From a plasmid, in sequence record CP121101.1: a stretch of DNA of 64,000 nucleotides; one strand, written 5' to 3'. Both the position numbers and the translations under genes were made by a program. The notes under the pieces were generated by a model that was not told the DNA's origin, searched no databases, and saw nothing but the letters and a program-made list of their open reading frames with translations. Shown here piece by piece: positions 12,183 to 57,320 of this stretch; the stretch's first letter is position 1; each line of letters begins with the position of its first letter.

Positions 12183-13003
12183 TGTGAGCCACCTCCAAAC
12201 TGAATTACCGCATTATTGAGGGTGCAATCCCCTTCCTTGCTAATGCTGAACGTTGCTGATTCCAATTTTATTGGCATTCCTTTCATCGCATTACCAAGCT
12301 CGCTAATGAACCAAGGATTAGCCTTTGCGATGGTCAGGCTGGCCTTTCTACTTGCCCATACCCCATTAGCTTCTATGGGTTCATAGCTTGCTTTCAAACC
12401 TGATATCAACGAAAGCTTTGAAAACAAATCAAAGACTGTATCATCAAGAACCTTGAAATTGGCATGATGTGAACTCCAATAGGAACTCAGAGGGATAGCT
12501 ACTCGAATAAATGGTGATGACCCGCTGAATGACATAGATAGGTTATTTTTTTCAGTCCATGCATTTATCACTTGTCTATCGATCACAACTTCAGGCAACA
12601 CCATATTGATGCTGCCTATTTCGATGGTTCCCGCAGGCAAATCCGTGACAACGGGAATTGTTCCAAACTTTGCACACGTCACACCAAACTCACTGATCGC
12701 ATCACCCGCAAGTTGCACATCTGTCCATGCTGCGCGATAGGCATACCAGGGATCCGTTACTTCCGGTGGCGGCGGTGGTGGCGGTTCAGGCCATAGAAAC
12801 CAGGTAACAGCTGCAATAACAGATATACAAACAAGTGATGGTTTAACCATTCTTGCCAATGCAGAACCACGAAACTCAACGAGCTCGAAGTCATCAGGCC
12901 TTAAATTTAAAGCCTCAATTATCGTTGTTTCTATGCCATGAACAGATAATTCGGTTGTAGAAAAAATGCGGTCAGATGGGTGTACCTGCAACCACTCAGA
13001 CAC
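12179..13003 (-). CDS. pilO: PilO-like pilus biogenesis protein
   Basis: Operon position between the secretin and pilP. TM helix PSLVCISVIAAVTWFLW followed by a PPPPPPP linker. Confidence 0.4.
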   Translation of the reverse strand: MSEWLQVHPSDRIFSTTELSVHGIETTIIEALNLRPDDFELVEFRGSALARMVKPSLVCISVIAAVTWFLWPEPPPPPPPEVTDPWYAYRAAWTDVQLAGDAISEFGVTCAKFGTIPVVTDLPAGTIEIGSINMVLPEVVIDRQVINAWTEKNNLSMSFSGSSPFIRVAIPLSSYWSSHHANFKVLDDTVFDLFSKLSLISGLKASYEPIEANGVWASRKASLTIAKANPWFISELGNAMKGMPIKLESATFSISKEGDCTLNNAVIQFGGGSQ

Positions 13004-19481: not shown

Positions 19482-19709
19482 ATTTCCCTACCATTCCTTC
19501 ATACATAAGTAATTACCGATAGCACTACGCTTTTATCGTCCATGCTCTCTTCGATATAATCTGCATGAAAATCCGAGCTATCTTACAAATAAAACTCCCG
19601 ATCCTCATGGGGACCTACGAGTATGCTTGGTGCAGAACTATCAGTGCTGATTCTCCCGCTATTTTGTCTAATGCAAGGCTGTCATCGACTCAACACCGAG
19701 TTATTCAGG

Positions 19710-21762
19710 GCACCGGCCTGTTAGTGCTCCAAGCATCCCACGGGGGCCTTGTTCCACTTGTAATACCGGCACCACCCAGCCGGTACTGGCCAACTTGAGC
19801 GCCGAGCTCGCAGCAGCCCGGGGCCACCTGATGCACAGACCCGCCGGACCCAGTACCGGCACAACCCCGCCGGCAGTGGCCAACCTTGGCGACGAGCTCG
19901 CAGCAGCCCGGGGCCACCTGCAGCACTGACCCACCGGACGCAGTACCGGATCCACAGCCAACCTAGACGCCGGGACCGCGGAGGCCCGCAGCCACCTACG
20001 GCACCGGCAACACCGGACACTGCGCCAGATCCCCCCGCCAGCTGTCGCCACCCTGGCACCGAGAGCTCGGCGGCCCAACTGGCGCAGCACCTGATCACCC
20101 TGCCGGCACTGGCCACCTTGGGCGTCGAGCTCGCAGCGACCCGGGACCACCTGCAGCACAGACCCAACAGACGCAGTAACGGATCCCCCGCCGGCAATGG
20201 CCAACCTGGGCGACGAGCTCGCAGCAGCCCAGGGCCACCTGCAGCACTAACCCACCGGACGCAGTACAGGATCCCCCGCTGGCAATGGCCAACCTGGGCA
20301 CCGAGACTTCGGCGGCCCGCAGGACGCTGCACCGGCCTCCCACCCGGTCGACGGCTACTTTGGGTGACGATCTCGCAGTAGCCCAGTACCACCTGTTACT
20401 CCTTCCCACCGGGCGAAACACCGAATCACACGCCGGCTGTGGTCACCCTGGTCGTCGGACTCCCAGCGGCCCAGGGCCACCTGCTACTCCTTCCCACTAG
20501 GCGAAGCGCGCCGGGTCACCCCGCCACCGCTGGGTAACCTCTGCCCGAAACCGCAGCGACCCGAGGCCACCGGCAGCACAGACCCGCCGGACCCAGTACC
20601 GGCACCACCCCACCGGCAGTGACCAACCTGAGCGCTGAGACCGCGGCGTCCAGGGGCCACTTGCTGCACCGGCAACACGGGGCGCACAGACCCGCCGGAT
20701 GCAGTTCCGGATCACCCGCCGGCTGTGGCCCCCTGGGTGCCGGCTCGCAACTGCCCGGGGCCACCGGCTACACCGACCCAACTGGCGCAGCACCTGATCA
20801 CCCAGCCGGCAGTGGCCACCCAGGGCGTTGAGCTCGCAGTGGCCTGAGGCCACCGGAAGCACAGACCCGCCGGATGCATTACCTGATACACCCCGCCGGC
20901 GGGACCGCGGAGGCCCGCAGCCACCTGGTGCACCGACCCCCACCCGGTCGATGGCCACCCTGGGCGCCGGCTCGCAACTGCCCGGGGCCACCGGCTACAC
21001 CGACGACCAACAACTGGTGCAGTACCTGATCACCCCGCCAGCAGTGGCCACCCAGGGCGCCGGCTCGCAGCTGTACGGAGCTACCTGCAGCACCGACCCA
21101 CCGGACGCAGTGCCGGATCCACCCCGCCGGCGTTGGCCACCCTCGGCGCCAGGACCGCGGAGGTCCGCAGCCACCTACGGCACCGGCAACACCGGACACT
21201 GTGCCAGATCCCACCGCCAGCAGTGGCCAACCAGGGCGACGAGCTTGCATCTGTACGGAGCTACCTGCAGCACCGACCCACCGGACGCAGTACCGGATCC
21301 ACCCTGCCAGCAGTGGCCACCCTCGGCGCCGGGACCGCGGTGGCCCGCAGCCACCTGCAGCACCGACCCACCGGACGCAGTACCGGATCCACCCTGCCAG
21401 CAGTGGCCACCCTCGGCGCCGGGACCGCGGTGGCCCGCAGCCACCTACGGCACCGGCAACACCGGACACAGCGCCAGATCCCACCGCCTGCAGTGGCCAA
21501 CCTGGGCGACGACAAGCTCGCAGCAGCCCGGGGCCACCTGCTGCACCGGCAACACCGGACACTGCGCCAGATCCCACCGCCAGCAGTGGCCACCCAGGGC
21601 GTGGAGCACGCAGCGGCCCGGGGCCACCTGCAGCACAGACCCACCGGACGCAGTACCGGATCCACCCCGCCAACAGTGGCTACCCTCGGCGCCGGGACCG
21701 CGGAGGCCCGCAGCCACCTATGGCACCGGCAGCACAGACCCGCCGGGCGCAGTAACGGATAA
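19710..21762 (+). repeat. high-GC (about 70%) degenerate tandem repeat array, period about 90 bp, about 22 copies
   Basis: The unit CCGCCGGCAGTGGCCAMCCTGGGCG..GCAGC(C)CGGGGCCACCTGCAGCACCGACCCACCGGACGCAGTACCGGATCCACC is repeated with two alternating half-variants. The youngest copies (21.2-21.5 kb) are near-identical. Confidence 0.85.
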
Positions 21763-21798
21763 TAAAAATCCGCCTCAAGGGGCGGATTAGGTTTTTCC
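21763..21798. terminator. bidirectional rho-independent terminator
   Basis: AATCCGCC-TCAAGG-GGCGGATT hairpin, flanked by AATAAAAA upstream and AGGTTTTT downstream. Confidence 0.7.
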
Positions 21799-22076
21799 AA
21801 TTTCAATAAGTGGTGATCAGCGCGGTGCCCGGCAGCATCTTGACGCAGTTGGTGACGATAGGGCGTTGAGGTTCAATGGCCTTACCTGCCTCCTGCATTG
21901 ACTCACCAGCCTGCTGCAAGGCCTACAACAGTCGTCGATAAGCCTACGTAAGGGCAAGGCAAATACTGTTATCCATTCGGTCGGCAAAGCGTTCTGCCGG
22001 GTTTCTGCACTCGGCCAAGACGCCAGTACAACGGAGCCAAGCGCCATTTGCTTGATCTTCATTGGTGTTTTTTCTC

Positions 22077-22400
22077 TTACTTACCAACTTCGACTTGGGT
22101 ATCCGAAATCAGCTGCTGCATTTCTTCGATATGGCGGCGATCAGAGTCGTCTAGTTCGGTGCTCTCGGCCAGATAATCCAGATCTTCGGCCAGCCTGAAA
22201 GTCAAATTCTGCAACGTGGTAATCCGGCCCAGCGCCACAACCTGAGCCATCGTCAGCCCCTCCCAATTTGACCAGGGACATTCTGCAACAGGGTGCGCCC
22301 ATGTCTCCCCACTCAGGGTATCCGGCCCATTCCGGGGCTCTAGCTTCGCCCCACAACAACCGCAGTTCTGTTCAGCCATGCCGTATTCCCTCTTACTCAA
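22077..22400 (-). CDS. Cys-rich hypothetical protein (possible zinc ribbon)
   Basis: N-terminal CGCCGAKLEPRNGPDTLSGETWAHPVAECPW. Confidence 0.3.
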   Translation of the reverse strand: MSKREYGMAEQNCGCCGAKLEPRNGPDTLSGETWAHPVAECPWSNWEGLTMAQVVALGRITTLQNLTFRLAEDLDYLAESTELDDSDRRHIEEMQQLISDTQVEVGK

Positions 22401-22770
22401 GCCGCAAACGTTCTTGCGCCATCATTAGCTCATATCCGCTGATCCGATCTACCCCTTGAACATCACGTTTGGGTGATCGAATTTCCTTACCGTTAACTGT
22501 GCCCGTCAGTATCCACTGTCGAAGCTGGCCAAGCGATAGGCCCAACTGCTTGGCTGCATCGTCCATGCGCCATGAATACTTGAGAAGTAGATCATCTGCT
22601 ACTTGGTCAAAATTCCCGGCCAGCATCCGTTCCAGCGCACGACGAGCCAAGCCCTCAGCAATGTCTCCATAGCGGGCAGTGTTGTAAGTAACCCGCAGCC
22701 CATTGTACTGCGCCTGCCACTGGCCTGTTGCGGCCTTAAAGGAGAGTCCTTTAGGGAGTCGGTCGCTCAC
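22393..22770 (-). CDS. hypothetical protein (possible DNA-binding)
   Basis: ORF overlapping its neighbours; helical with basic patches. Confidence 0.3.
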   Translation of the reverse strand: MSDRLPKGLSFKAATGQWQAQYNGLRVTYNTARYGDIAEGLARRALERMLAGNFDQVADDLLLKYSWRMDDAAKQLGLSLGQLRQWILTGTVNGKEIRSPKRDVQGVDRISGYELMMAQERLRLE

Positions 22771-22796
22771 GGTTCCTTTACCTCAATATGACGGGC

Positions 22797-23246
22797 TTAA
22801 TGAGCCCACGACTGCGCGTTATATGGAGTCTCCAGCAGCTCACCACGAAGAATGCAGTCCCCTAAGAACGCAGCCCTCGATTCAACCCACTTCACCTCCT
22901 CTGGTAGGCAAGCTGCGAGGTCAAACATGCAATAGAGATGGCGTTGCCGGTACGTATCTTTTTCAGATTTGAGCCCATCACGTAAGGCTCGGATGCTTTG
23001 AACAATGATCACTTCTTGCCCGCGGTGCAACACGGCTACTCCGCATTTTCGTCCCAACCGACCCAGCTCAAACTGGTCTATGGCACCATCGGCGTAATCC
23101 AGTTCAACGATGCGGGCGGCCTGACCTTCAATCAGCTTAAGTGCAACTTCTTTGCTACCCGCTTGCAGAATATTCATCGTTTTTCCCAAGTAATCATCAC
23201 TCAATGTCATTTGTGGGTTCTTTACACCAGGCTCTAGATGTTCCAA
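22797..23246 (-). CDS. hypothetical protein
   Basis: ORF only. Confidence 0.3.
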   Translation of the reverse strand: MEHLEPGVKNPQMTLSDDYLGKTMNILQAGSKEVALKLIEGQAARIVELDYADGAIDQFELGRLGRKCGVAVLHRGQEVIIVQSIRALRDGLKSEKDTYRQRHLYCMFDLAACLPEEVKWVESRAAFLGDCILRGELLETPYNAQSWAH

Positions 23247-23448
23247 TGGCCACCACCCCCATCACTACGCCTGCCAAAAACACGCATAGAAAGGTCAAGC
23301 ATAAACTCTCATATCTAATTGATATATCGACCAAAACAATCAAAGAAAATATCGCAATAAGAACTATCAATCCAGCTATCGGATGTAACCTTATGCCTAA
23401 ATTTCTAACCGATGTTGGTTTACCATATTGTTTAAAGTTCAACCCCAT
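23197..23448 (-). CDS. small membrane protein
   Basis: Two TM helices (IAGLIVLIAIFSLIVLV, LTFLCVFLAGVVMGVVAIG). Confidence 0.25.
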   Translation of the reverse strand: MGLNFKQYGKPTSVRNLGIRLHPIAGLIVLIAIFSLIVLVDISIRYESLCLTFLCVFLAGVVMGVVAIGTSRAWCKEPTNDIE

Positions 23449-23458
23449 TTTCCCTCGA

Positions 23459-23800
23459 TCAGTTGCTTGTTGCTGCGAGCATATCAGCCGCCATGACGTT
23501 AGCCAGCTCGGGAGCCAATACTGTAGTGGCGCTGATCAGCCTGTACTCGCTCGTCTCATACTCGCTCGGCCAGCCTACCAGTTCGGCATGAACCTTGATA
23601 AGGCCGGACTTCGACAAACCAGCGCCGAGAGCTTCAATAAACTGCTTGTCGCCATCCTCGGCTATATCATCAAGAACCATCTTCCGCACATCCGCGTCAT
23701 GTGATGACACCTCAAGAACGGCACCGGCCGACCAGCTCACACCAAGTGCTATCAATGCTGTAAATGTCATTTCCATGGTCTTTGATTCCTTGCTTTCCAA
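23459..23800 (-). CDS. small secreted hypothetical protein
   Basis: Signal peptide MEMTFTALIALGVSWSAGA. Confidence 0.3.
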   Translation of the reverse strand: MESKESKTMEMTFTALIALGVSWSAGAVLEVSSHDADVRKMVLDDIAEDGDKQFIEALGAGLSKSGLIKVHAELVGWPSEYETSEYRLISATTVLAPELANVMAADMLAATSN

Positions 23801-24179
23801 TCAGCTTGCTTTCGCGTAAGGAGCCGGTGGTCTCCCCTTTCACGTATCTTCGACATTGCCGGTTCTTTGTAAAGATGCACACTCTACTTGTGCCGGCATT
23901 GTGTGGTTTTCACACAATGGCCATCAGTTTCTCAGTGCTAATTCTCCCACTGGTTTTACCAATGCAAGGCGGCCGCCCCTTCAACACAGGTATTCAGGCC
24001 GCCGACTCGCCGGACGCTGTGGACTTGATCTCTCAACCAGCTCGGCACAGGTCCGGGGCGATCCAGCCCTACCACACCGGCAGCGTAAACGCTGAACATC
24101 GATTAGCTCGGTGGTCCATTGCCACCTGCAGCCACTGGATGCTAATCCATATCACTGGTTGAGGTCGTTCTTAGCTCCG

Positions 24180-25150
24180 TGCACCAGATCAATGACACCA
24201 GAGCTGGCCGCTCTGGAGGCGCAGTAAGCACCATCGGATAAAGGTTCCCGAACTCTACATTCACCCCGGCAAGGGCCCTCAGGTCACCAGCCGTGTCGAC
24301 CCCAAATATCAAGCCGGTCGGCAGCTCGCTTCCACCTACAGTGCTAGCAGCGCCGAACTATACACCTGACCTCCGGAACCAGCCCTAACCACTCTGAACC
24401 TACGTACCAGCTCAGTGGTACCGGCGTGCCCCCTTGGATGCTGAGCTCACAGCGGCCCAAGGCATGTCAGATCCCTCCCCTCCTCTCGGCCGAAGCGAGC
24501 TAAACCGAGCCCTGGGTCCCGAGATCGGCATGCACACCGACAAAAGCCCACAACCATCCCCAGGCCCCTCCGCTCACCGGCACCGGTGCAGGTCTCCCAG
24601 GACGCCGAATCCACTGTGGCCAGGGGTCCGTAACATCTGGTCCTTCAAGGGTACTGGGTCCAGAACTCGGCAAGCACACCAACTAGATCCCGCCACCACC
24701 ATTGCAGGCCCCACTAAACACCTGCACCGACCCAGGATCCGTTGAACACTTCGCACAAGCTCACTGGTGCCCCCTTCCCTGAAATCAACCAGTAGGCATC
24801 CCACACCAGGTCACCAGCCCCGACGCTAGCCGCTCAGGGGGTGCCTTGAAAGACGCCGTAGCACAGAGGCCCGAATTCAGCATGCACACAGACAAAAGCC
24901 TGGGCCTAGCACACGAGTGAGATCTTCCGGGCCACTTGCTGTACCGCGAGCACATTGATAGTGCAGGCCAACACCAATCAGAACTGGGGGCTAATCAGGC
25001 GTGTGTTCAGGAGGCTGTGACTGGCGGGCTCGCCAGTGAATACCTGCAACTTGCTGACGGAATGGATTTGCCCGTCAGTGCGCTCATGGCGCCAGTTGCA
25101 TTGCGAAGATCTGGGGGATGATCGAAGTAAGCAAAAAAATCGTCTACGGG
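24180..25150 (+). repeat. degenerate copies of the same high-GC repeat family (about 355-bp higher-order period)
   Basis: The landmark GCATGCACACCGACAAAAGCC occurs at about 24524 and 24879, with the surrounding text matching the 43.9-44.8 kb region. Confidence 0.6.
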
Positions 25151-25158
25151 TGCTATAA

Positions 25159-28100
25159 ATGTCCTTTTTGAACGCAACGGCTTTCCTTGATTACTTGTTC
25201 TGCCCTCCCCTTTCAGGGCACAAAACAACCGTCATCGCAAAAACGGTGTCCCAAAAAATCAGGTGCAATATTGAAGCGATCAAAATTGTAAAGCGCTGCT
25301 TGGCTGATGGCTCGCTGGCTGTATCTGACGTCGAGCGTGATGTCCTTACTCAGTATACCGGATGGGGTCAACTATCAGGACTCTTTGAGCCAGAACACCC
25401 CCAGCATGCCGAATTGAAATCGCTAGTCACTCAAGCAGAATTCGCTGCGTTGGAAGCATCTGTATTGACCTCCTATTACACCTCCGAATGGATTATTGAT
25501 GCCATGTATCGTGCCGTGGCACGCCTGGGTGTGCAGGAAGGTCTATTACTCGATTTCGCTACAGGCTCAGGTAAATTTTTGGCGGGGCGCCCAGCGACTC
25601 TTTCAGCGATGAAATCCTTTGCTGTTGAGTTGGATGGCCTGACAGGGACTATCGCCCGCCTGCTGAACCCTGCAGCCAAGATCTATGTCAATCAGCCGTT
25701 CGAGCAAGTAAAGCTCCCGAATAGTGGCGACTTTTCCCTAGTTATTGGAAACCCGCCATACTGCTCTGTTCCTGCCAGGGATAGAGCATTTGGCACTCTT
25801 CCACTACATGCCTACTTTCTGATTAGGGGGTTGAGCGAACTGCACCACGGCGGGCTAATGGCTGTTGTCGTATCAAGCTGGGTAATGGACTCGAAAGATA
25901 ACGATGCGCGGCTATCTCTCTCGGCCAGGGGAAATTTGGTTGCAGCCTGTCGTCTGCCGAATTCGGTGTTCAAGGGTGAAGGAGCCAACGTTGTTACCGA
26001 TATTCTGGTCTTTCAAGCCTGCCAGCACCCGGAAGAAAACCCTTCATGGATCGACACCGTAGAGGTCAACGACGAAGCAGGCTCGGCATATCGTGTGAAT
26101 CGCTTGTTTGTGGATCGTCCTGAACTCGTCGCCGGCAAAATCTCAGCTCCTAGCACCTTCAATGTGTCTTGCAACGTTGCAGACCCTGGCCGTGATCTTG
26201 CGAGTGTTGTAACTGAAATCCTCGATATCCAGACTTCCAACCCCTTATTTTACCGTAAGTCTACGGTTCCAGTTGCAAGGAAAGGCGTCATTTCTGCCCC
26301 CGCTGGTATGAGCGATGTTGGGCCATATGAGTTTTGCCAAACTCCGGCGGGCGAGTTGATGCGTCGAGTGGCAGATCATGTTGATGAAAACGGGGCTAAG
26401 GTGCCCACGTTCCAACAGTGCGAGTTTAAATCAGCCAAGGATAGGCTGCGTATATCGGCCATGCTGAGAGTTAAGAGGGTCTTGGCATCACTCATCAACG
26501 CAGAGCAAAGCAATGCGCCAGACACCAGCTTGCGAGCTATTAGGGCTGATCTTAATGCAACCTATGACCGCTTTACTGCCGACTTCGGTCCGTTCCACGC
26601 CTCAAAAAACAAATCTGTACTTGGGGAAGATCCGTGGTATTACCGCTTACGTGCTCTCGAGCTGGACTACATCGCACCGATCAGTACCACGGTTGCCGAA
26701 AAGGAGGGCATCGCAGAGCGTAAAGAGCAATGGAGTAAGGGGGATCTGTTCACCCGCCGCGCAATCACTCCGTTGATCACTCCCAGCTATGCCGCGAACC
26801 TTGCCGACGCCGTGCTAATTTCCGTGAGCTACAAGGGTGAGGTCGATCTTTCATACGTTCGGGATCTGGTCGGCTTTAAAGGGACAGACCAAGAACTTTT
26901 GCATCAGTTGGCCGAACAATCTCTGGCATTTGCCGAACCAGATAGTGGCAACCTGGTCATTGCTGCAAAGTACCTTTCAGGTTACATCCCCAGCAAGATT
27001 GAGGCTGCACAAGGAGCGGCCGAATCCGACCCTCTGTTTGCTATCAATGTTGCCAAACTGCAGCGAGTCATGCCCTCCCCCATCAAGGCGGTAGACATTT
27101 TTGCACCGATGAACTCCCGTTGGCTGCCTAACCATTTCCACGCCGATTTTATCCGCCATCTGGTCGATCAGCCCAAATTGAATGCACAAGTTACCCTTAT
27201 CGACAACGAGTATCATGTTTCGCATGGCTCTCTTCCTCAAACCGTCTTAACCTCTGAATGGGGTACGCAGCGCCGCGATATGACCACCTTGCTCATTGCG
27301 CTTTTGAACAATCGCGCGATTGAGGTACGCGATCCACATCCGAGCATATCTAATACGACTGTTCCGAACCCGGACGAAACAATGGCCGCCCAACACAAAG
27401 CAGAGGAAATTAAGGCGGCCTGGGAGTCGTGGGTGCTGGATGATTCCGAACGCCGCAACGAAATTGAGCTTGCTTATAACGCACATTTCAACGGCTTTGT
27501 TGCCCCAAATATAATGGCTCACGCCTGCCTTTAACTGGTAGTGCAGTAGACCTATATCACACACAGAGAAACGCCATTGCTCGGGTCATTCATGAGTCGT
27601 GCACTTTGATCGATCACGCTGTCGGCGCCGGAAAAACGTTCACAATGATTGGCGCGGCAAGCGAACTAAGACGCATTAATAAATATGAGCGTGTAGTGCT
27701 GGTCGCGCCTAATCATCTTGTTGCTCAGCATGCCACCGCTGCACAATTTATTTTCCCTGGCATGAACATCTTTGTGCTCGATAAAACGATGATGACCCCG
27801 GCCACACGCCGCACAGCCTTAGCCCGCCTTGCAATGACAGACTTCGATCTATGCATCATCCCGCTGAGTGTGTTCGGGCTAATCCCAGCCCCTCACGATC
27901 TCTTAGTCGAAATGTTGGAAGCAGAGATTGATGATCTTCACCGGTGTTTGTCGGAGCTGAAAAATGAGCGGTTATCTGTACGCCGGATGCAGACGCGGAT
28001 CCAGCGCAAAGAAGCAGAACTCGAAGAACTGGTGAACAAACGCACTGATGAAATGCTCGACTTTGCTGACCTAAGGATCACAACTCTAATCATTGATGAG

Positions 28101-30164
28101 AGCCAATTCGGTAAGAACCTAAGTTATTCTTCATCCCTGCAAAGCGTTGCCGGCATGGGCCAGGCATCAGGCAGTAAGCGTGCCTTTGATCTATTTATCA
28201 AAAGCCGTGCTGTTCTGCGTGCCGGTGGGCGATATGTTGAGGCTACCGGAACACCAATCCTCAACTCCGTTGTGGAAGCACATCGACATCTGCGAGTGAT
28301 GGCCGAAGATTTTACTCAGTCAGCAAAGCTGACCCACTTTGACGCATTCAGTGCAGTTTTCGCCCAGCCAGTGACAGATTATGAATTGGCGGCGTCCGGG
28401 CGCGGCTACAAGATGAGAACTCGAATTAGTACATTCACAAATTTGACAGAGCTTCAAGCTATCTACTCAAGCTTCGCTGATGTAGTTACTTCTGAGCAGT
28501 TGCCTAATGTCTTGCCAAAACTAGCTGATGGCCGCAGTGCTATACCTCCCCTCACAGGGGGCAAGATCATCGAGCTGGTGATTGAACCCAATGAGCACCA
28601 GGAAAACGGCTTCGCCGAAATCGTCAGTGCATATTCTCGAGTCGATAACCGGGAGAACAACCCCCTTAAACTGCTCAACCGGGGGCGAATGCTCTCTCTC
28701 GATGCTCGGCTTGTGTACCCAGACGCACCGGACTACCAGGACAGCAAAATTAATACCGTAGTGCGCTACCTGCTCGAAAAATATCAAACGACAACTAGCG
28801 TTCGCGGTACTCAGATGGTCTTCATGGATCGCAGCATTCCCGCTCGCCATCGTGCCGGAGCTTCGAAAGAGTGGGCGGCAATATTCAACCTTGCTAGGCA
28901 GGGCGATGAAGAAGCGTTAGAGCGTATTGAAGGCCTAGACGAACTCGAACTTACCGCCATGGTCTGCAGTTCATTCAGCCTCTACGATGAGCTGGTAGAA
29001 AAATTGGTTGAGGGTGGCGTCCCCCGCAACGAGATCGCAGTGATCCACGATTACCGGACGGACACCAGAAAGGAAGCGTTGCGTGACATGATGAATGAGG
29101 GGCAGATCCGAATTTTGCTTGGCTCTACTGAACTGGCAGGCTCTGGGCTCAATATCAACCGGCGTTTGGTTTCGTTGGTTCACTTCGATCTCCCATATCG
29201 GCCCGGTGATTTGGCGCAACGAGCTGGCCGCATTGAGCGCCAAGGCAATCTGTTATGGGCGAATGACCCCGAGTTCACCATTGATATTGTTGTGCCAATC
29301 ACCCGTCGCTGTCTTGATGCTTGGCAACTGGGTTTGCTCAACACCAAGCAGCGCTTTATCAGCCGTTTCCGTCAACTCGATAGCTCAGTCCGGCACTACA
29401 CAGAGCAAAATGAAGCGATTGATTATGCCGAGTTAAGCGCCATCGTAGCCGATGACCCGCGAATCCTGGCTCATGTCAAAGGCAAAGCAAAGCTGCGAAA
29501 GCTTGAGGCAGCCCGGAATAACTGGTTCCGGAATCGCGTCAGATTGGACGACCAGGCACAATCCCTTGAGCAAAGAAGCGCAACCTTGGCGACCAAAATA
29601 CAGATGATTCGAGCCGATGCAGCTAACATTGCGGCCACGGCGGATGAGTTGTTGATCACTGTGGATGGTGTGACATATGAAAAAATGGGGGTGGATTCGA
29701 CGGCTACAGATCGTCTAAACATAACCGCCGCCGCCCCGGCTGTCGGTTCAAAATATGGCAGACTGAACTACCGTGCAGATATTGGCAGTCAACACGACAT
29801 GGCTACTTACCGGGGGGCTACTCTGGTCTATGAAAAGCCGTATTTCGCCAAGTTGTGCTTCGCCACCGAGTTCACAGTTCGCGGCCCCTCTGGTCATCAC
29901 TACGAGCTGAGAAATTTAGAGCGCAATAGCATTAACGCTGTGATGGCCGCCTTTGTCGTGCTCGTCGATACCTTGCCGCGCTTACCAAACATAGCCACGG
30001 CCCAAATGGCTACTTGGACAAAGAACGCTACCGACTATCGCACTGAGGCAGCGAAGCCATTCAGCGCCCAAGCAGAGCTTGATGAACTGATCCCATTTTT
30101 GCGGCAACTTGAAAAGGAATTGGCAGATTCAGCCACACATTCAGTAAATCAAATGGCCGCTTGA
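25159..30164 (+). pseudogene. giant fused N6-adenine DNA methyltransferase / SNF2-like SF2 helicase (about 1660 aa) with an apparent frameshift near 27500
   Basis: MTase motif I DFATGSGKF and motif IV GNPPY lie in 25159..27534. Helicase motif I GAGKT, motif II DESQ and motif VI QRAGRIERQGN lie in 27606..30164. The helicase frame is open back to 27483 and encodes the Q-motif-like LYHTQRNAIARV, so the two ORFs were once contiguous. Confidence 0.75.
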
Positions 30165-34054: not shown

Positions 34055-34105
34055 ACAGGGGCAGGGGCAGGGGCAGGGGCAGGGGCAGGGGCAGGGGCAG
34101 GGGCA
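34055..34105 (+). repeat. (CAGGGG)8 hexanucleotide microsatellite
   Basis: Eight perfect CAGGGG units, 85 nt upstream of the PRTRC ubiquitin-like gene. Confidence 0.9.
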
Positions 34106-34188
34106 GGGGCAGTTCAGGAGAAAGTTGATGCCCAAGCACTTTTTGACCAAGACATTTTGTCCTCTTTGGGAATCTAAGGGGAGTCCAT

Positions 34189-37880: not shown

Positions 37881-38880
37881 TCACTTTTTGAGCATAGCAA
37901 GGAGATCGAACAGTTGCTGACTGGAAATCTCGTCTGGTAGGGTCAACTCGAAAGTATTGCCCTTTTTTTGCTTCACCTCGATTCCGGCAATCACATTCAC
38001 ATTGGTGCGCTTTTTCGGCTTTTCACCCGCAAGTTCTGTTGCTTGTGCGGCAATGTCGGCCAGTGCTTTCGGTGCTGAGGGGTATGGCTCTTTACCTTGG
38101 GCCCATAATATCAGGGCTTCAACTTGTCCCTTCGTGAGTAGCTTTAGGGTTCTTCGCAGATTTAGTATTGTTGGGCGCCCAGTACCAGTTCCATCCGGTA
38201 GCAGTTCATAGAGTGGCAGCGGGATCTCAAGTGCCCACTGTGAGGCGCGGACTTCTGACTCATGCACCCCGAAAAGTGCTGCGGCCTGGAGTACATCTAA
38301 CCCTTCATCCTTCATCACCCGGGCATAATGCAGCCCTTTATCATAAAGCGAGTTGGGTCGAGTGAGGTTGGCAAGTCGACTGAGCTCGCGTAGCTCTGCC
38401 ATGCTCAGATCCTCTGTTTCGTCGGTGTAAGCTATGGGTAAGCCTTTATCCGCCAACAGTGCACAGTATCGGCGACGCTGACCGTCAAATATCCATATAC
38501 CTGGTATCTGCTCCTCGTACTGCCAACACCTCCATCACGACGCCACCAGACCGAACTGAGCCGATCAGGTCATCTACAGTTTCTTCAGTCACTCCCGACT
38601 TGGAGCGAATATTCGCTTCGTGGATATAGGTTAGCTCCTCAACATGTGCGGAGGGGATATAGACTGACGTCAGCCGCACGAGGCGCCCATTTTTAAGGCG
38701 TATAACCCGGAAAGCACCAGTCGATCGAATCTTGCTGGCCAATGCTTCTTCCGCGTCCAGAAATCCCCCAGCCACATCCTCAGGTATGCTGAACACACCG
38801 CTTGAAATGGACGGCTCGGCTGCTGATGCAGCCATGTGGGCCACTAGGCCTGTGCTCATTGGCGTGCGCTTTTTGCTCAT
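37881..38880 (-). pseudogene. parB: ParB partition protein, frameshifted near 38500
   Basis: The N-terminal ORF is 38485..38880. The C-terminal ORF 37881..38456 is preceded in-frame by the ParB box FDGQRRRYCALLA. Confidence 0.65.
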
Positions 38881-38913
38881 CAGTTCGATACCTCAAGAAT
38901 GTTAGAGAAAAAC

Positions 38914-39964
38914 TCAGCCACAACGTTCTCCGCAACGTTCTGGGCACGTCGGAGTGACCGGGTATCTCCTGCATAATGCTTCGGTTGGATGGATGGTGAA
39001 TACGGTTCGGCCATCTTCAGTGACAGAAGAGAATGGCCTCAGTTGCTCCATCCTGTTGACAAACAACTTCGCTGGTTCAAGGTTCTTGAGCATCATGTAG
39101 TTATCCAGATGCTGTGGATTGGTGCCGTCAAATTTACTGCCCAGAAGCCAGACTGATGCGGGATCCAGGTTTGGGGAGGGGATATTCGCCAACAACCCAT
39201 GAATGGACTCGAGGAATTTCAAGCTCGAGTCAAACTCCAGCGGGTCGAGGCCAATAGCAACAAACAAGCTGTCACTCGCTTGCAAAGTGTTAATCAAGGC
39301 CGCGTCAAGATGAGGACCCGCATCAAGCAAGATGAGATCGAAGTGATCACGAATCGGATCAATGACATATTTTGTCAGCAATTCGGTCATGTTGATGCCG
39401 GTATCTGCAGCGTGTTGGTATGCCTGCAGTGAAAAGAAACCATCAGCTGTACCCGCCGGCATGACGAATAGCCCATCGCTAGAAAGTAGGCAGCATCCAT
39501 GACCTTACCGTTTCAGGTGTGGCTCTGCTGGCAATGGCTTCGATTGCAGAATGCTGTGGCACTTTTCCAAGCCCGGCGAACCCAAAAGCAACGGAAGTTG
39601 ACCCCTGGGGATCCATGTCAATAACCGCTACCCGCAATTGATGACGGATCAGGTTGCGATGATGAACCAAACCGGTCGCGATGGTAACGGTCGATGTGGT
39701 CTTGCCAACCCCCCCCTTTAGGTTCTGGCAAGCTACCACCTTAGCGCGAGTATCGGAGCCAAGAGTGGACTTGATCTCGGCAAACGAACGCTGGCCTGCG
39801 GCCTTGTAAATGGCCCGCACATCGGCATGAGAAAATGTGTGTGGTTGGAGCGCGTTTTTCTCTGCTGGTAGCCGGCTAAACTCTCGGCCACCATCACGCA
39901 ACACCTTGATGGCCCCTTCAACTCTGGCCCGGGTCATTTCCGGTAAACGCTGCACCTGGTACAT
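38914..39964 (-). pseudogene. parA: ParA/Soj partition ATPase, frameshifted near 39470
   Basis: Deviant Walker A KGGVGKTTSTV and DMDPQGS lie in 39479..39964. The C-terminal half lies in 38914..39462 in another frame. Confidence 0.7.
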
Positions 39965-40391
39965 CGTGTAAACCGCACTTTGATAGCCGTCCTCAATGAG
40001 GAGTCCCGGCGGTCTTGCTTAACATCGGCTATGTACCCCAACACCATTCTTGCTTGGTTGCGGAGTTTCTCGAAGCCCACCAAGCGTTGCTGTCTTTCCA
40101 ATACACTGATCATTCGACTTCCACCGTCAATTCCATGTTTTTAGGTCTTGGGATGATAATTCAGGAATTATGGGTTTGTCTATTTTTTGGCAATAGGCGC
40201 AGCTGGAGGCACAAGCTCTGCCCTCAGCTAAATGCGGCCAACTAAACCAAAAGCACATCAGATGACCGATCACATTCATTCGTCACCAGCCCCAGCCTGA
40301 TTGGAAGAAGTAACTGCATACTGATTCTTCCCCGCAAATCATCACCGTCACCAATGGATTTGACCCCATAGATCCAGACACTTTTTCCCGC

Positions 40392-41270
40392 TTAGGGTTG
40401 TGATACCCGACTGCGCAGAAATTCCCGTGGTGAACGGTATCCCAAGGCGCTGTGCGGGTGGTGCTCGTTATAATGCTCAAACGCGATAGCCAAATTGCCT
40501 ACCGCTGTTCGGCTATCCGGTTTTGGCATCATCTCGATATAGTCTCGCTTCATCGTCTTCACGAAGCTCTCCGCTATACCGTTACTCTGTGGGCTTCTCA
40601 CTGCTGTCGTTCTGGGCTCCAACCCGATTTCTCGTGCAAACGCGCGGGTCTCATGGGCGCGATACGCCGAGCCATTATCAGTCAGCCACTCCACCGGTGA
40701 TGCCGGCAACGAATCCCCAAAGCGACGTTCGACAGACCTCAGCATGACATCTTGCACCGTGTCACTATCGTAACCCCCAGTACTGGCCGCCCAGTCCAAC
40801 GCTTCCCTATCGCAGCAATCCATGGCGAACGTGACACGTAGCTTTTCACCGTTATCGCAGCGAAACTCGAAGCCATCTGAGCACCACCGTCGATTGCTCT
40901 CCTTGACGGCAACACACCCCTTATGTGCCTGCTGGGCCAATGGTGCAGCTGGTTTTCTTTCCAGCAGCAAGCCATGCTCGCGCATGACGCGATATACCCG
41001 CTTAGCGTTTACCACAGGTTGTTCTGTTGCCTCAGACTGACGCCGTAACAGCGCCCAGACCCGGCGATAGCCATAGGAGGGAAGCTCTGCCATCGCCTCC
41101 ATGATACGGCCAAGTAAGGCTGCATCATCACGCTGGCGATGATGACGACCATCTTGCCAACCCGGTTTTCGATGAACACGAACGGATAGCTGCGCACGCG
41201 ATACATTAAGAGCCTGGCTCACAGCACTTAATCGTCGTCCCCCGGCAACAAGGGCGCATGCGCAATCCAT
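40392..41270 (-). CDS. IS2-like transposase OrfB (DDE integrase core), expressed by -1 frameshift with OrfA
   Basis: [20 protein letters not shown] and [14 protein letters not shown] are IS3-family catalytic-core motifs. Confidence 0.85.
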
Positions 41271-41623
41271 TTTTTTGCTCGACCATACTCCACGGCTTCT
41301 TTGAGGATCTCGTTCTCCATGGTCTTCTTCCCGAGCAGACGCTGAAGCTCTCGGATCTGCTTGATGGCAGCAGCCAACTCGGAAGCAGGAACAACATCCT
41401 CACCGGCGGTGATCGCCGTGAGAGACCCTTCTTGGAATTGCTTACGCCATTTGAAAAGCTGGTTTGCGTTGACGTCGTGCAAGCGAGCAACATGAGAGAC
41501 GGTCATCCCGGGCTCAAAGGTCTGCTGCACGATGGCGATCTTTTCTTGTGGAGTCCGGCGTCGACGGCGCTCGGCCCCTGTTAACACTTCGACCATCTTC
41601 TCGTTGTGACTAGTACTGAACAT
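41228..41623 (-). CDS. IS2-like transposase OrfA (InsC-like)
   Basis: [47 protein letters not shown] is near-identical to the IS2 InsC pattern. Confidence 0.85.
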
Positions 41624-41716
41624 AGCTCCAAGACTACCTCTTAAGTTAAGAGGGGCGAAGTGTCTGGATCTTCAAGGGGCCAATCTAACCAACACGGTCG
41701 TTAACCCGCCGAGAAG

Positions 41717-41815
41717 TGATACAAGGCAACTACGACAGTAGTTCAACAGTGATACAAGGCGACTACGTTGGTAGCTCAATGGTGATACGACTTGCATCAA
41801 ATGTGATTCGTTTAT
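41717..41815 (+). repeat. three direct repeats (about 33 bp, iteron-like), possible centromere or operator
   Basis: AGTGATACAAGGCAACTACGACAGTAGTTCAAC and AGTGATACAAGGCGACTACGTTGGTAGCTCAAT, followed by a partial third copy GGTGATACGACTTGCATC. Confidence 0.55.
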
Positions 41816-43461: not shown

Positions 43462-43559
43462 ATTGAAGGCCGTACAGCGATTGTGCGGCCTTTTTTTGCT
43501 TATTCACTTCAGGTCGACTCGGCGATGCACCGTTCGAGAGATCGCTAGGTAGGCACATC

Positions 43560-45053
43560 AGCAAGCTGCAGCTAGATTCTGTATGGGCAGGGGGCCAACT
43601 AAGGCGAAGGCCGGGGGGGGGGCATCGGCTCTCGCCGGCCCGAGGCCCCGCCAGTACCGGCCGGGTGGAGTTATCCAAGGTACTGGCCTAGCATGCCTGG
43701 AGCCGGCGCCAGATCCTGCAGGGGCGGGGCCAACCAAGGTGCCGGCCGAAGAAACACCGGCTCCCGCACACCTGCAGGCCTGACCGTGGCAGCCCTAAGG
43801 CTGAGTTCTACGGCCTTAAAGCGTCAGAACAAACGCCCTCATAATCTCCTCCTTCCTCACATCCATGACTTGGCAAGCAAACAAATGCCTGCCGCCATCT
43901 CGAGCCTAACCGCATGACGCGAACCGGATATCCAGCCCGGGACGCACCGAGCATCCCAAACCGGTCCTCTGAACACCGAACCGAAACCGATAATGGGGCG
44001 GGCTACCTGGGACGTTGAGCTCGGGCCTTGCCAGCCCCAGCACACCTGACGGCCCCGCCGACTGCCATGAACCGGAACACTCGTCCAGCAGGGTACCGAG
44101 CCTGCGACGGCCCTGGCTCGACTTAACCAGCCCCGGCCCAGGGCCCGCCATGCACCGGCTCCCCCTGAACACCGAACCGACCGGCAGCCCGGGGCCACCT
44201 GCTGTACCGGCCCGCCGGACAGAGTACCGGATCCACCCCGCCGGCGGTGGCCAACTCGGGCTCCGAGACCGCGGCGGCCCGGGGCCACCGGCAGCACCAC
44301 CACACCGAATACAACTCCGGATCGGTCCACACTGGCCAAAGAGTCCGCGGCGGCACGATCCGTCAACCACACTCCACAAAGGCCAGCGCGAGCGCTACCA
44401 AAGCCCAGGATCTTGAGATCGGCATGCACACCGAGTAAATCCCGCCGCCACCTGGTCCAGCACACTTGCCGGCACCGCCGGACGTAGCACCCGATCCCCC
44501 GCCGGCGGTGGCCGCCCTCTGCCCGATCCCACGGTGACCCGGGCCATCCTGCTGCACCGCCCCGCCAGACGTTGTACCTCAGTGGCCCCCCATGCGCCGA
44601 GCACGCAGCAGCCCGAGACGTACCAGGTATTGCGCATCGGCTTACTCGACCCAGGGCACCAATGGGGATAGCGGTACCCGCTCGGCGGCCAGCATCTGCA
44701 GAATCAGCCCTGATCATTTAGTCCGGGCCCCTTAGACTCAGCACACCAGTGTGTGGAGCTCGAATACCGCCGGAGCCTTGGCTTGCTACTCTGCATGCAC
44801 ACCGACAAAAACCAGCCACCACAACTCCCGGCCCCACCGGCAACAGCACCGATCCGGGAGCTGCAGCGCCACCGGCAAGCACCGGAACACCCGCAGGCAG
44901 TGGCCACCCTCTAACCGAACCCGCCGGCCGCTACAACCGATCACCCCGCCGCTGCTGGGCACCCTGGATGCCGAACTCGCTGCCGCCCGGGGCCACCTGC
45001 AACACAGACCCATCGGAGGCCGCGCCGAATCCCCGCCCGGTCGCCGGCTACCC
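43560..45053 (+). repeat. third locus of the high-GC degenerate repeat family, abutting the Tn5393 IR
   Basis: About 370-bp higher-order units marked by GCATGCACACCGA(C/G)(A/T)AAA at 44424 and 44795. 90-bp subunits with ...CCGGATCCACCCCGCCGGCGGTGGCCAAC.... G11 homopolymer at 43611. Confidence 0.6.
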
Positions 45054-45134
45054 GGGGTCGTTTGCGGGAGAGGGCGAAATCCTACGCTAAGGCTTTGGCC
45101 AACGATATTCTCCGGTAAGATTGATGTGTTCCCA
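45054..45134 (+). repeat. Tn5393 81-bp terminal inverted repeat (strB-proximal end)
   Basis: GGGGTCGTTTGCGGGAGAGGGCGAAATCCTACGCTAAGGCTTTGGCCAACGATATTCTCCGG... Confidence 0.75.
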
Positions 45135-56832: not shown

Positions 56833-57228
56833 TTATAGCCATACTAACCCTTGAGGTTTAGACTTCAACGATTCCAAACGACTTTGTAGGCTACCGCTAT
56901 GGATTTCCAATTTATGGCCGTCAGGATCGAGCAAGTATAAAGAAAGTCCTTCGCTTCTATTTTGTTTCCATTCAACGACATGTGCTTCGCGAAGCTTTTT
57001 AGTAACTGGTTCGAAATTCTCTTCGGAAACATCAAACGCGATGTGACAGTAATCTTGGCTCGGATGCACTTCGTCACAAGACAAGCAAATCCAAGTAGCC
57101 TCCAAGCTCAGATATGCCCCACTATCCCAGCGGACATGTGCCTTCATTCCTAATAGACGCGTATAGAACTCCACGGAACGTTCAAGGTCACTTACTGCAA
57201 TAGTAATATGATTCAATCCTCGTAACAC
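56833..57228 (-). CDS. FosA-family fosfomycin glutathione transferase gene cassette (FosC2-like)
   Basis: MLRGLNHITIAVSDLERSVEFY...LDPDGHKLEIHSGSL is the VOC/FosA fold. It is the first cassette next to attI1. Confidence 0.7.
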   Translation of the reverse strand: MLRGLNHITIAVSDLERSVEFYTRLLGMKAHVRWDSGAYLSLEATWICLSCDEVHPSQDYCHIAFDVSEENFEPVTKKLREAHVVEWKQNRSEGLSLYLLDPDGHKLEIHSGSLQSRLESLKSKPQGLVWL

Positions 57229-57320
57229 TGACTCTCCTCAGCGAACATAACTTTGTTTTAGGGCGACTGCCCTGCTGCGTAACATCGTTGCTGCTCCATA
57301 ACATCAAACATCGACCCACG
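57229..57320 (-). promoter_or_regulatory. attI1 recombination site region (crossover GTT at the first cassette boundary)
   Basis: The reverse complement reads ...GCCCTAAAACAAAGTTATGTTCGC..., the typical attI1 3' end. Confidence 0.5.

Follow-up and report, generated by a model that had tools for sequence, protein, structure and literature searches.

Does the GC-rich locus at positions 24180-25150 of a 64,000-nucleotide stretch of plasmid DNA (record CP121101.1; hereafter the window) form, together with a second locus at 43.56-45.05 kb, a pair of direct repeats through which the 18 kb of genes between them could be deleted or amplified? This is what an initial annotation of the window had proposed. 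We found that both loci are probably copies of a non-coding, strand-polar, GC-rich minisatellite, which turns over fast, is tolerated in the gaps between genes, and can dispense with single copies. Throughout, we compared the window with pAER-f909 of Aeromonas sp. ASNIH4 (171 kb, MOBH), the closest relative of this region at 97-99.7% identity, and with the plasmids pS121-1b and pK522-MOX.

Three GC-rich loci of common polarity

The window contains three gene-free GC-rich loci, L1 (19.65-21.8 kb), L2 (23.94-24.96 kb), and L3 (43.56-45.05 kb), with GC contents of 0.71/0.67, 0.60, and 0.69, respectively, in surroundings of about 0.45-0.53. C exceeds G and A exceeds T on the plus strand of all three, which have the same strand orientation; the GC skew is -0.19 at L2 and -0.20 at L3 and the AT skew +0.18 and +0.25, an asymmetry common to the locus at 19.7-21.8 kb (L1). 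The direct orientation described in the initial annotation was borne out, as every motif copy and every repeat unit lies on the plus strand. The limits given there for L2 (24.2-25.15 kb) needed adjustment: the array itself occupies about 23,940-24,960, and the remainder, 24,960-25,158, is the conserved upstream region of a methylase-helicase gene and lies outside L2. The features of the three loci are as follows.

19650-19776, plus strand: leader of L1, with a block of ~57-80 bp (TCAGTGCTGATTCTCCC...AATGCAAGGC...TATTCAGG) common to the L2 leader
19777-21761, plus strand: array L1, ~23 head-to-tail 90-bp GC-rich units
21767-21800, detected on both strands: bidirectional intrinsic terminator closing L1 (A-tract, hairpin, T-tract)
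23798-23998, plus strand: 200-bp leader of L2, matching the leader of the pS121-1b array (77% over 204 bp)
24000-24960, plus strand: array L2, decayed; GC of 0.60 and strand skew kept, no significant 90-bp unit
24528-24548, plus strand: punctuation (tail) motif GCATGCACACCGACAAAAGCC, first L2 copy, with a degenerate copy at 24670
24880-24900, plus strand: punctuation motif, terminal L2 copy, marking the 3' end of the array as it does in pK522-MOX and in array L4 of pAER-f909
43465-43503, plus strand: intrinsic terminator of the upstream plus-strand operon, just ahead of L3
43560-45053, plus strand: array L3, heterogeneous, with 5-6 recognisable units at 44183-44323, 44499-44650, and 44950-45032; truncated on its 3' side
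44422-44442, plus strand: punctuation motif, first L3 copy (3 mismatches)
44793-44813, plus strand: punctuation motif, second L3 copy (1 mismatch), 371 bp past the first
45054-45093, plus strand: terminal inverted repeat of a Tn5393-type (Tn3-family) transposon, cutting L3; its sequence is unique in the window

A 90-bp unit and its degenerate relatives

The basic unit is about 90 bp long and has the form CCGCCGGCAGTGGCCACCCTGGGCGCCGAGCTCG.CGGCGGCCCGGGGCCACCTGCAGCACCG.CCCGCCGGACGCAGTACCGGATCCACC. Tandem Repeats Finder detected tandem periods (90, 180, and 363 bp) in none of the loci but L1, the best-preserved copy within the window and our reference for the family. Searching with a unit profile (nhmmer) built from 13 L1 units, we recovered 23 units in L1, with E values down to 3e-24, and 5-6 units in L3 (E from 1.9e-13 to 0.019), all on the plus strand. 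No L2 unit reached significance in the profile search (best E=0.13 and 0.84), and one iteration of the profile brought up only 2 weak L2 matches. Head-to-tail units of 10-100 bp in non-coding DNA, as a minisatellite has them, were found by both programs.

Local alignment, scored against 60 dinucleotide shuffles, gave z values of 42 for L3-L1, 12 for L2-L3, and 2.3 for L2-L1, such that the similarity of the first two pairs goes beyond base composition. Sensitive blastn returned 40 alignments between L1 and L3 (59-77% identity), four short ones between L2 and L3, the best covering 100 bp at 71% around the punctuation motif, and none within the arrays for L1-L2. L2 and L1 have a leader of ~80 bp in common, and the L1 leader at 19662-19718 is 79% identical to positions 4511-4565 of pS121-1b. 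The view that one repeat family occupies both bracketing loci was thus upheld for L3, by its units and its similarity to L1, and was not clearly upheld for L2, which has no significant unit and resembles L1 only weakly. Judged by sequence similarity, L3 is a true member of the L1 family, and L2 is a degenerate relative in which only the composition, the punctuation motif, and the ~80-bp leader remain. The two loci differ from each other both in build and in degree of decay.

The punctuation motif GCATGCACACCGACAAAAGCC, allowing up to 3 mismatches, occurs at 24528, 24880, 44422, and 44793, always on the plus strand, and matched in 0 of 100 shuffles of the sequence. Its spacing of 352 bp in L2 and 371 bp in L3 agrees well with the period of 355-370 bp that had been noted for this landmark. 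A second landmark, CCGGATCCACCCCGCCGGCGGTGGCC, had likewise been ascribed to both loci; it occurs at 44227 in L3 and three times in L1, and is not present in L2. The 21-bp motif appears to punctuate or close blocks of units, and since one block comprises about four units and the motif, a higher-order period of ~360 bp results. In other plasmids the same modules are shuffled into unit variants of 42-104 bp (42, 63, 69, 77, 78, 90, 95-99, and 104 bp among relatives), and spacings of 88, 89, and 93 bp occur among the units of L1 and L4. The core GTGGCCACCCTGGGCNCCGAGCTC is well kept across plasmids, with conservation spread over ~70 nt and units that are 60-90% alike.

The arrays encode neither protein nor structured RNA

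All six frames are open across the arrays because the sequence is GC-rich, and we considered whether a protein repeat (frame ...ATLGAELAAARGHLQH...) could be encoded. This candidate was ruled out on three grounds. Column entropy in the aligned units was 0.615, 0.632, and 0.651 bits at the three codon phases, without codon periodicity; relatives have unit periods that are not multiples of 3 (77, 98, 104, 68, 95, 97, and 223 bp), and the best-preserved array, L4, mixes 89- and 90-bp units; and no annotated coding sequence underlies any match to the unit family in 16 plasmids.

A structured RNA was rejected as well. Rfam gave no array match at the gathering score and none at E<=1, only 1 of the 9 pairs in the consensus fold shows a double change (essentially no covariation), and four units folded no better than shuffles on either strand (z of -1.0 and -0.15). 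Two further candidates were set aside: a CsrA-type sponge, in that the GGA of CCGGAUCC is not kept in type-B units or in pK522 units (CCAGATC), and a CRISPR array, in that the units are contiguous, homologous over their full length, and free of spacers. By these sequence tests, the arrays are non-coding and lack a conserved RNA structure.

L2 and L3 are poor substrates for recombination

Given that the loci lie in direct orientation and bracket the same module in several plasmids, and that the L2-L3 similarity is significant (z=12), they could be read as long direct repeats from which homologous recombination might excise or amplify the 18-kb module. However, the longest exact stretch common to L2 and L3 is 20 bp, just ~100 bp of them align, at 71%, and the two are unlike in build and decay. 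The corresponding longest exact matches are 13 bp for L1-L2 and 21 bp for L1-L3. RecA-dependent recombination in Escherichia coli needs ~25-30 bp of perfect homology, and its efficiency drops steeply with divergence. Because the exact matches lie at or below this minimum and divergence is high, L1, L2, and L3 are not expected to act as substrates for deletion or amplification. Nor did we see any derivative from which the module had been deleted: the left flank is found in 13 PLSDB plasmids, and in every one of them the module adjoins it.

With exact matches of 13-21 bp, identities of 59-77%, and a module kept in 13/13 relatives, the deletion and amplification proposed in the initial annotation find no footing, and we regard this reading as highly improbable. 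As far as sequence can tell, the L2 and L3 copies are far too diverged to recombine, and the 18-kb module would be no deletable or amplifiable unit. An 18-kb maintenance module without usable flanking recombination substrates gives no reason to predict special instability from the repeats.

Arrays in other Aeromonas plasmids

The unit family occurs in 16 PLSDB plasmids, all from Aeromonas. pAER-f909 has four co-oriented arrays, the fourth of which, L4 (132.4-134.3 kb of the plasmid record; 32380-34330 in our extract L078), consists of ~21 nearly identical 89-90-bp units. A Toprim/DUF7146 gene flanks L4 on one side; on the other, two small genes separate it from a KfrA_N gene, next to which comes a gene for a tyrosine recombinase. 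The last L4 units give way to the punctuation motif, behind which stands a strong bidirectional terminator; a bidirectional terminator also ends L1. In general the arrays occupy the gaps between genes, in many cases after a terminator and ahead of the next promoter, and the flanking genes are divergent at L2, convergent at L3, and co-directional at L1 and L4.

At the L2 position, pS121-1b has a single array upstream of the methylase-helicase gene, and pK522-MOX has a counterpart there too; the punctuation motif closes both L2 and the pK522-MOX counterpart. The pK522-MOX arrays at the L2 and L3 positions are 1.5 and 2.7 kb long, and at the L3 position of pS121-1b a remnant of 650 bp is left, in which units are absent. 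The window and pAER-f909 have L1, which is found in neither pS121-1b nor pK522-MOX; the segment that contains L1 is different from those two plasmids, and L1 has a leader copy of its own.

The family is much expanded in pAeme3 (NZ_CP038446.1, 190.8 kb), a MOBH plasmid with a different backbone and an F-type transfer system. Here 12 arrays with 288 units fill large gene-free gaps and amount to 28.4 kb, or 14.9% of the plasmid, with up to 56 units and 4.9 kb in a single array. Ten of the 12 arrays are oriented alike; the other two, at 17.3-18.2 kb and 35.3-39.3 kb, are adjacent and inverted, and the orientation of Chi tends to flip at 17-39 kb, where they lie. A motif of ~55 bp starts five pAeme3 arrays and also closes three others. 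We also considered an association with integrases, as three integrase genes adjoin pAeme3 arrays; this evidence is weak, because two of the three are duplicate paralogues, upstream of which one and the same segment recurs.

Beyond PLSDB, a degenerate core pattern scanned against 185,579 species genomes (one per species) gave single chance matches only, such as one in an apparently conserved coding region of Zobellella and Oceanisphaera, an acyl-CoA dehydrogenase by our reading of the translation. A metagenome scan found arrays in four contigs, each of them pAER-like or pAeme3-like; two of the four break off inside an array. Across the PLSDB, metagenome, and species-genome scans, the arrays therefore appear confined to two backbones of large Aeromonas MOBH plasmids, of some of which they make up 5-15%, and they account for ~7% of the window. 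As far as the literature on these plasmids and on GC-rich plasmid repeats could be searched, the arrays are not described in it.

In pAER-f909, E. coli-type Chi (GCTGGTGG) has 20 occurrences on the plus strand of the record and 6 on the minus strand, with all six of the latter at 32-49 kb. The cumulative GC skew also has its minimum at 32-49 kb, and a Tus-like gene lies near the skew maximum. This sequence pattern suggests that Aeromonas uses Chi of this type and that the origin of the plasmid lies at about 45-49 kb, a short way past L3. The pAER-f909 arrays all lie in the long arm, where the plus strand of the record is G-rich; GC skew and Chi orientation thereby point to the G/T-rich array strand as the leading strand.

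Two further roles were rejected. The arrays are not Chi-site arrays: each unit contains GCAGGTGG, one mismatch from Chi, and the position that decides on Chi is the most variable of its module, with exact Chi occurring 0 times in the window arrays and at most 4 times in any other array. They are also not an origin of replication; we counted 3 DnaA boxes in 166 kb, without clusters or AT-rich windows, and the neighbouring genes that we scanned have no Rep domain.

Turnover, decay, and the transposon in L3

A comparison of near-identical plasmids indicates that the arrays change faster than their surroundings. When the window is set against pAER-f909, identity is 99.56% in the flank and 95.3% in L1, and the L1 alignment offsets shift by ~+90 bp and ~-95 bp, which corresponds to one unit gained and about one lost. 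Such polymorphism in unit number between close relatives is what characterises a minisatellite or variable-number tandem repeat (VNTR). In contig RRZU010519277.1, which is 99% identical to pAER-f909, L4 is ~250 bp long (12634-12869 in our extract L085) versus ~1.9 kb; this could be a real contraction or the collapse of a short-read assembly.

L3 shows how a single array can be disrupted. Homology to pAER-f909 ends at 45057, and unique sequence, GGGGTCGTTTGCGGGAG..., begins at 45054, where the Tn3-family inverted repeat starts; beyond it lie an APH(6)/strB gene, a resolvase, and a Tn3-family transposase. The initial annotation was therefore right to describe L3 as cut by the Tn5393 inverted repeat at this position. 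It was right about the order of events, too: the pAER-f909 counterpart of L3 runs on uninterrupted for ~770 bp more, and L3 hence predates the transposon. Separately, Rfam identified an AAC_AAD_leader / attI region at 57219-57297 on the minus strand (71 bits), which marks a class 1 integron; it belongs to the resistance region that follows the Tn5393-type element on its right.

Given that L2 has lost its units, that the L3 position of pS121-1b holds a unit-less remnant, and that L3 tolerates a transposon, we conclude that single arrays are dispensable. Gain and loss of units are seen in L1; they would come about through unequal exchange or replication slippage inside an array, and homogenisation of this kind, perhaps with GC-biased conversion, may keep live arrays uniform and at 70-79% GC. 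Copies that are no longer homogenised would drift into unrecognisable GC-rich remnants, of which L2, at 60% GC, could be one. For the family as a whole, we lean slightly towards the absence of any essential sequence-specific function, and the function of the satellite may be nil.

Several observations weigh against an account in these terms. The ~70-nt consensus is conserved across two different plasmid backbones, and array positions persist across plasmids that are ~8-12% diverged. The arrays reach 14.9% of pAeme3 despite the usual bacterial deletion bias. All 173 of 173 units (11 arrays in the first six plasmids) are co-oriented, and each of the four pAER-f909 arrays has its G/T-rich strand on the inferred leading strand. 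By a count from annotation tables, the downstream gene converges on the array in 11/15 arrays, and bidirectional terminators follow 7 of the 12 listed arrays within ~250 bp, which could mean that the arrays are transcription units. Together these points hint at selection or some directional process. The account is further weakened in that GC-biased conversion as the cause of the high GC is itself inferred.

Might the arrays have a role in cis?

By analogy with sopC, iteron arrays, and DR1 of plasmid RA3, the arrays might be functional cis-acting elements, either multi-site platforms for a ParB-like, KfrA-like, or H-NS-like protein or polar boundaries of modules, that serve in partition, pairing, copy control, or domain organisation. 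We consider this possible but doubtful. The ~70-nt consensus with its well-kept core is maintained across backbones; arrays are found at conserved positions on either side of the ParB/PRTRC/ParAB module; L4 has a Toprim (primase-like) gene on one side and, two small genes away on the other, the gene of a KfrA_N protein; orientation is strict within a replichore; and 5-15% of plasmid DNA is spent on the arrays. One RA3 DR1 motif, moreover, behaves as an incompatibility determinant (PMC9455977). However, the units have no single dyad-symmetric or short invariant core, their conservation being spread over the whole unit, and helical phasing is not seen in their lengths of 42-104 bp. Plasmids persist although single arrays in them have decayed or been disrupted, a more conventional parS-like palindrome repeat lies upstream of parA, and neither DnaA-box clusters nor AT-rich unwinding regions occur near the arrays.

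A broader version of this idea, which we think unlikely, is that the arrays form a polar system of cis-elements: co-oriented GC-rich arrays in the gaps between terminators and promoters would divide large, AT-richer Aeromonas plasmids into domains, with an orientation set by the replichore. They could do so as protein-binding platforms, as insulators against the spreading of H-NS or ParB, or as signals of replication direction. If true, this would be a new kind of element in plasmid architecture, taking up 5-15% of the replicon. Taking consensus, positions, polarity, and amount of DNA together, a real DNA-level role for the arrays is conceivable, albeit rather unlikely.

Transcription of the arrays is a still less probable explanation, and one to which we give little credence. 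Under it, leader, array, tail, and terminator would make up a long C-rich non-coding RNA, or the arrays would be untranslated, C-rich zones of Rho-dependent termination that insulate neighbouring operons. Strong bidirectional terminators do end L1 and the L4 array of pAER-f909 and lie within ~250 bp of 7/12 listed arrays, leaders are conserved (200 bp at L2 and the ~55-bp start motif at five pAeme3 arrays), and C exceeds G on the plus strand of the arrays, a composition of the kind that Rho prefers. Yet no promoter-like site leads into L2 or L3, and the overall counts of such sites are at or below shuffle expectation; the sequence upstream of the pAeme3 start motif is not conserved; the arrays give no RNA structure signal and no Rfam match; and the flanking arrangement varies among L1-L4. 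The boundary motifs themselves do not fold as terminators, a role that we rejected as their folds are no better than those of shuffles. A minisatellite with fast turnover and dispensable copies thus remains our favoured description of L2 and L3.

Host plasmid and neighbouring genes

The relatives of the window are circular plasmid records with ICE-type (integrative and conjugative element) transfer genes and a type IV pilus cluster, and the backbone is ~92% identical to that of a dozen other Aeromonas plasmids of 160-245 kb. Going by how pAER-f909 is annotated, the genes that separate L2 from L3 encode a methylase-helicase, PRTRC ParB, a DnaN-like protein, PRTRC ThiF, ParB, and ParA, and the loci do bracket this 18-kb module as originally described. 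These had been called ICE genes. Because the close relatives are all circular plasmid records, we regard the element as a plasmid with ICE-type transfer genes and not as a demonstrated ICE.

Two of the module's genes are split in the window. The methylase-helicase gene, single in pS121-1b and pK522-MOX, is represented by open reading frames (ORFs) at 25159-27534 and 27606-30164, and the parB/parA-homologous stretch at 37881-39964, again made up of single genes in those two plasmids, is broken into four ORFs of 131-191 aa. Frameshifts or stops account for the splits at 25159-30164 and 37881-39964, and they mark either pseudogenes or indel errors of the assembly. Upstream of parA lies an insertion sequence of the IS3 family (40353-41700) with 25-bp terminal inverted repeats at 40370-40394 and 41647-41671; hundreds of plasmids from enterobacteria and Aeromonas have this element at 99% identity. 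Short tandem repeats with the palindrome CTACnnnnGTAG also occur upstream of parA, at 41715-41788 in the window and at 25378-25424 of our pK522-MOX extract (L003); they are a more conventional candidate for a parA operator or a parS-like centromere.

A different tandem repeat lies inside a hypothetical gene of the PRTRC region, where the perfect hexanucleotide CAGGGG is repeated 9.5 times (34056-34112); the pK522-MOX version (L003 19044-19131) has 14.7 copies, written GCAGGG. From the sequence, in-frame variation in copy number would alter the length of a Gly/Gln-rich stretch. Between L1 and L2, four small minus-strand genes at 21817-23800 are absent from pS121-1b and pK522-MOX, and for one of the genes here (~22383-22770), many IncA/C-type plasmids have an 'AP2 domain-containing protein' gene of 88-89% identity. 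The stretch from 21 to 25.3 kb is 97.7% identical to pAER-f909, below the 99.6% of the flank, which suggests a recombination patch.

Comparison with known systems

The amount of satellite DNA is unusual for a bacterial replicon, as bacterial replicons normally shed non-functional DNA, and it raises the question of whether the arrays are selfish DNA that biased conversion keeps rich in GC or serve megaplasmids as structural elements. Whatever the answer, the arrays break short-read assemblies, as seen in metagenome contigs that end in them, and one could use them as VNTR markers to follow these resistance plasmids. The suggestion of deletion or amplification fails, and the satellite family is a curiosity unusual in its scale.

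In several respects the family resembles bacterial minisatellites and VNTRs, for example the mycobacterial interspersed repetitive units (MIRU). The units are tens of bp long, arranged head to tail, and intergenic; their number differs between near-identical replicons; and units evolve in concert within an array. The scale, however, is far larger, with up to 56 units and 4.9 kb per array and 28 kb, or 14.9%, of one plasmid. Unlike VNTRs such as MIRU, the arrays also combine an extreme GC content relative to the host replicon with a consistent strand polarity and a restriction to two plasmid backbones.

Like sopC of the F plasmid (12 x 43 bp) and iterons, the arrays are tandem direct repeats in non-coding plasmid DNA, with conserved orientation and a copy number above functional need. 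sopC and iterons, however, have short, near-identical units with a defined protein-binding core and adjoin par or rep genes, whereas the array units are long, 60-90% alike, and without a single core, and the arrays lie dispersed around the plasmid, each decaying on its own.

In construction and context, the nearest analogue is the pair DR1/DR2 of RA3, an IncU Aeromonas plasmid, which its authors call 'long repetitive sequences ... of unknown function' (PMC9455977). These arrays, of 339 and 557 bp and nearly perfect, are mosaics of tandem motifs that share their ends (r1, 38 bp; r2, 42 bp; r3, 60 bp), and r3 behaves like an iteron (PMC9455977). Ours are similarly non-coding mosaic tandem arrays that flank a functional module of an Aeromonas plasmid in direct orientation. 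The two are analogues and not homologues: nhmmer gave E>=0.5 and never matched DR1/DR2, Smith-Waterman z values were at most 1.5, and the shared k-mers GTGGCCAAC and GCAGCAGC were not significant. In contrast to the RA3 repeats, the arrays of the Aeromonas MOBH plasmids are 1-5 kb long, have 70-79% GC, are heterogeneous, and occupy 3-12 loci per plasmid. No Rep gene was identified beside those examined.

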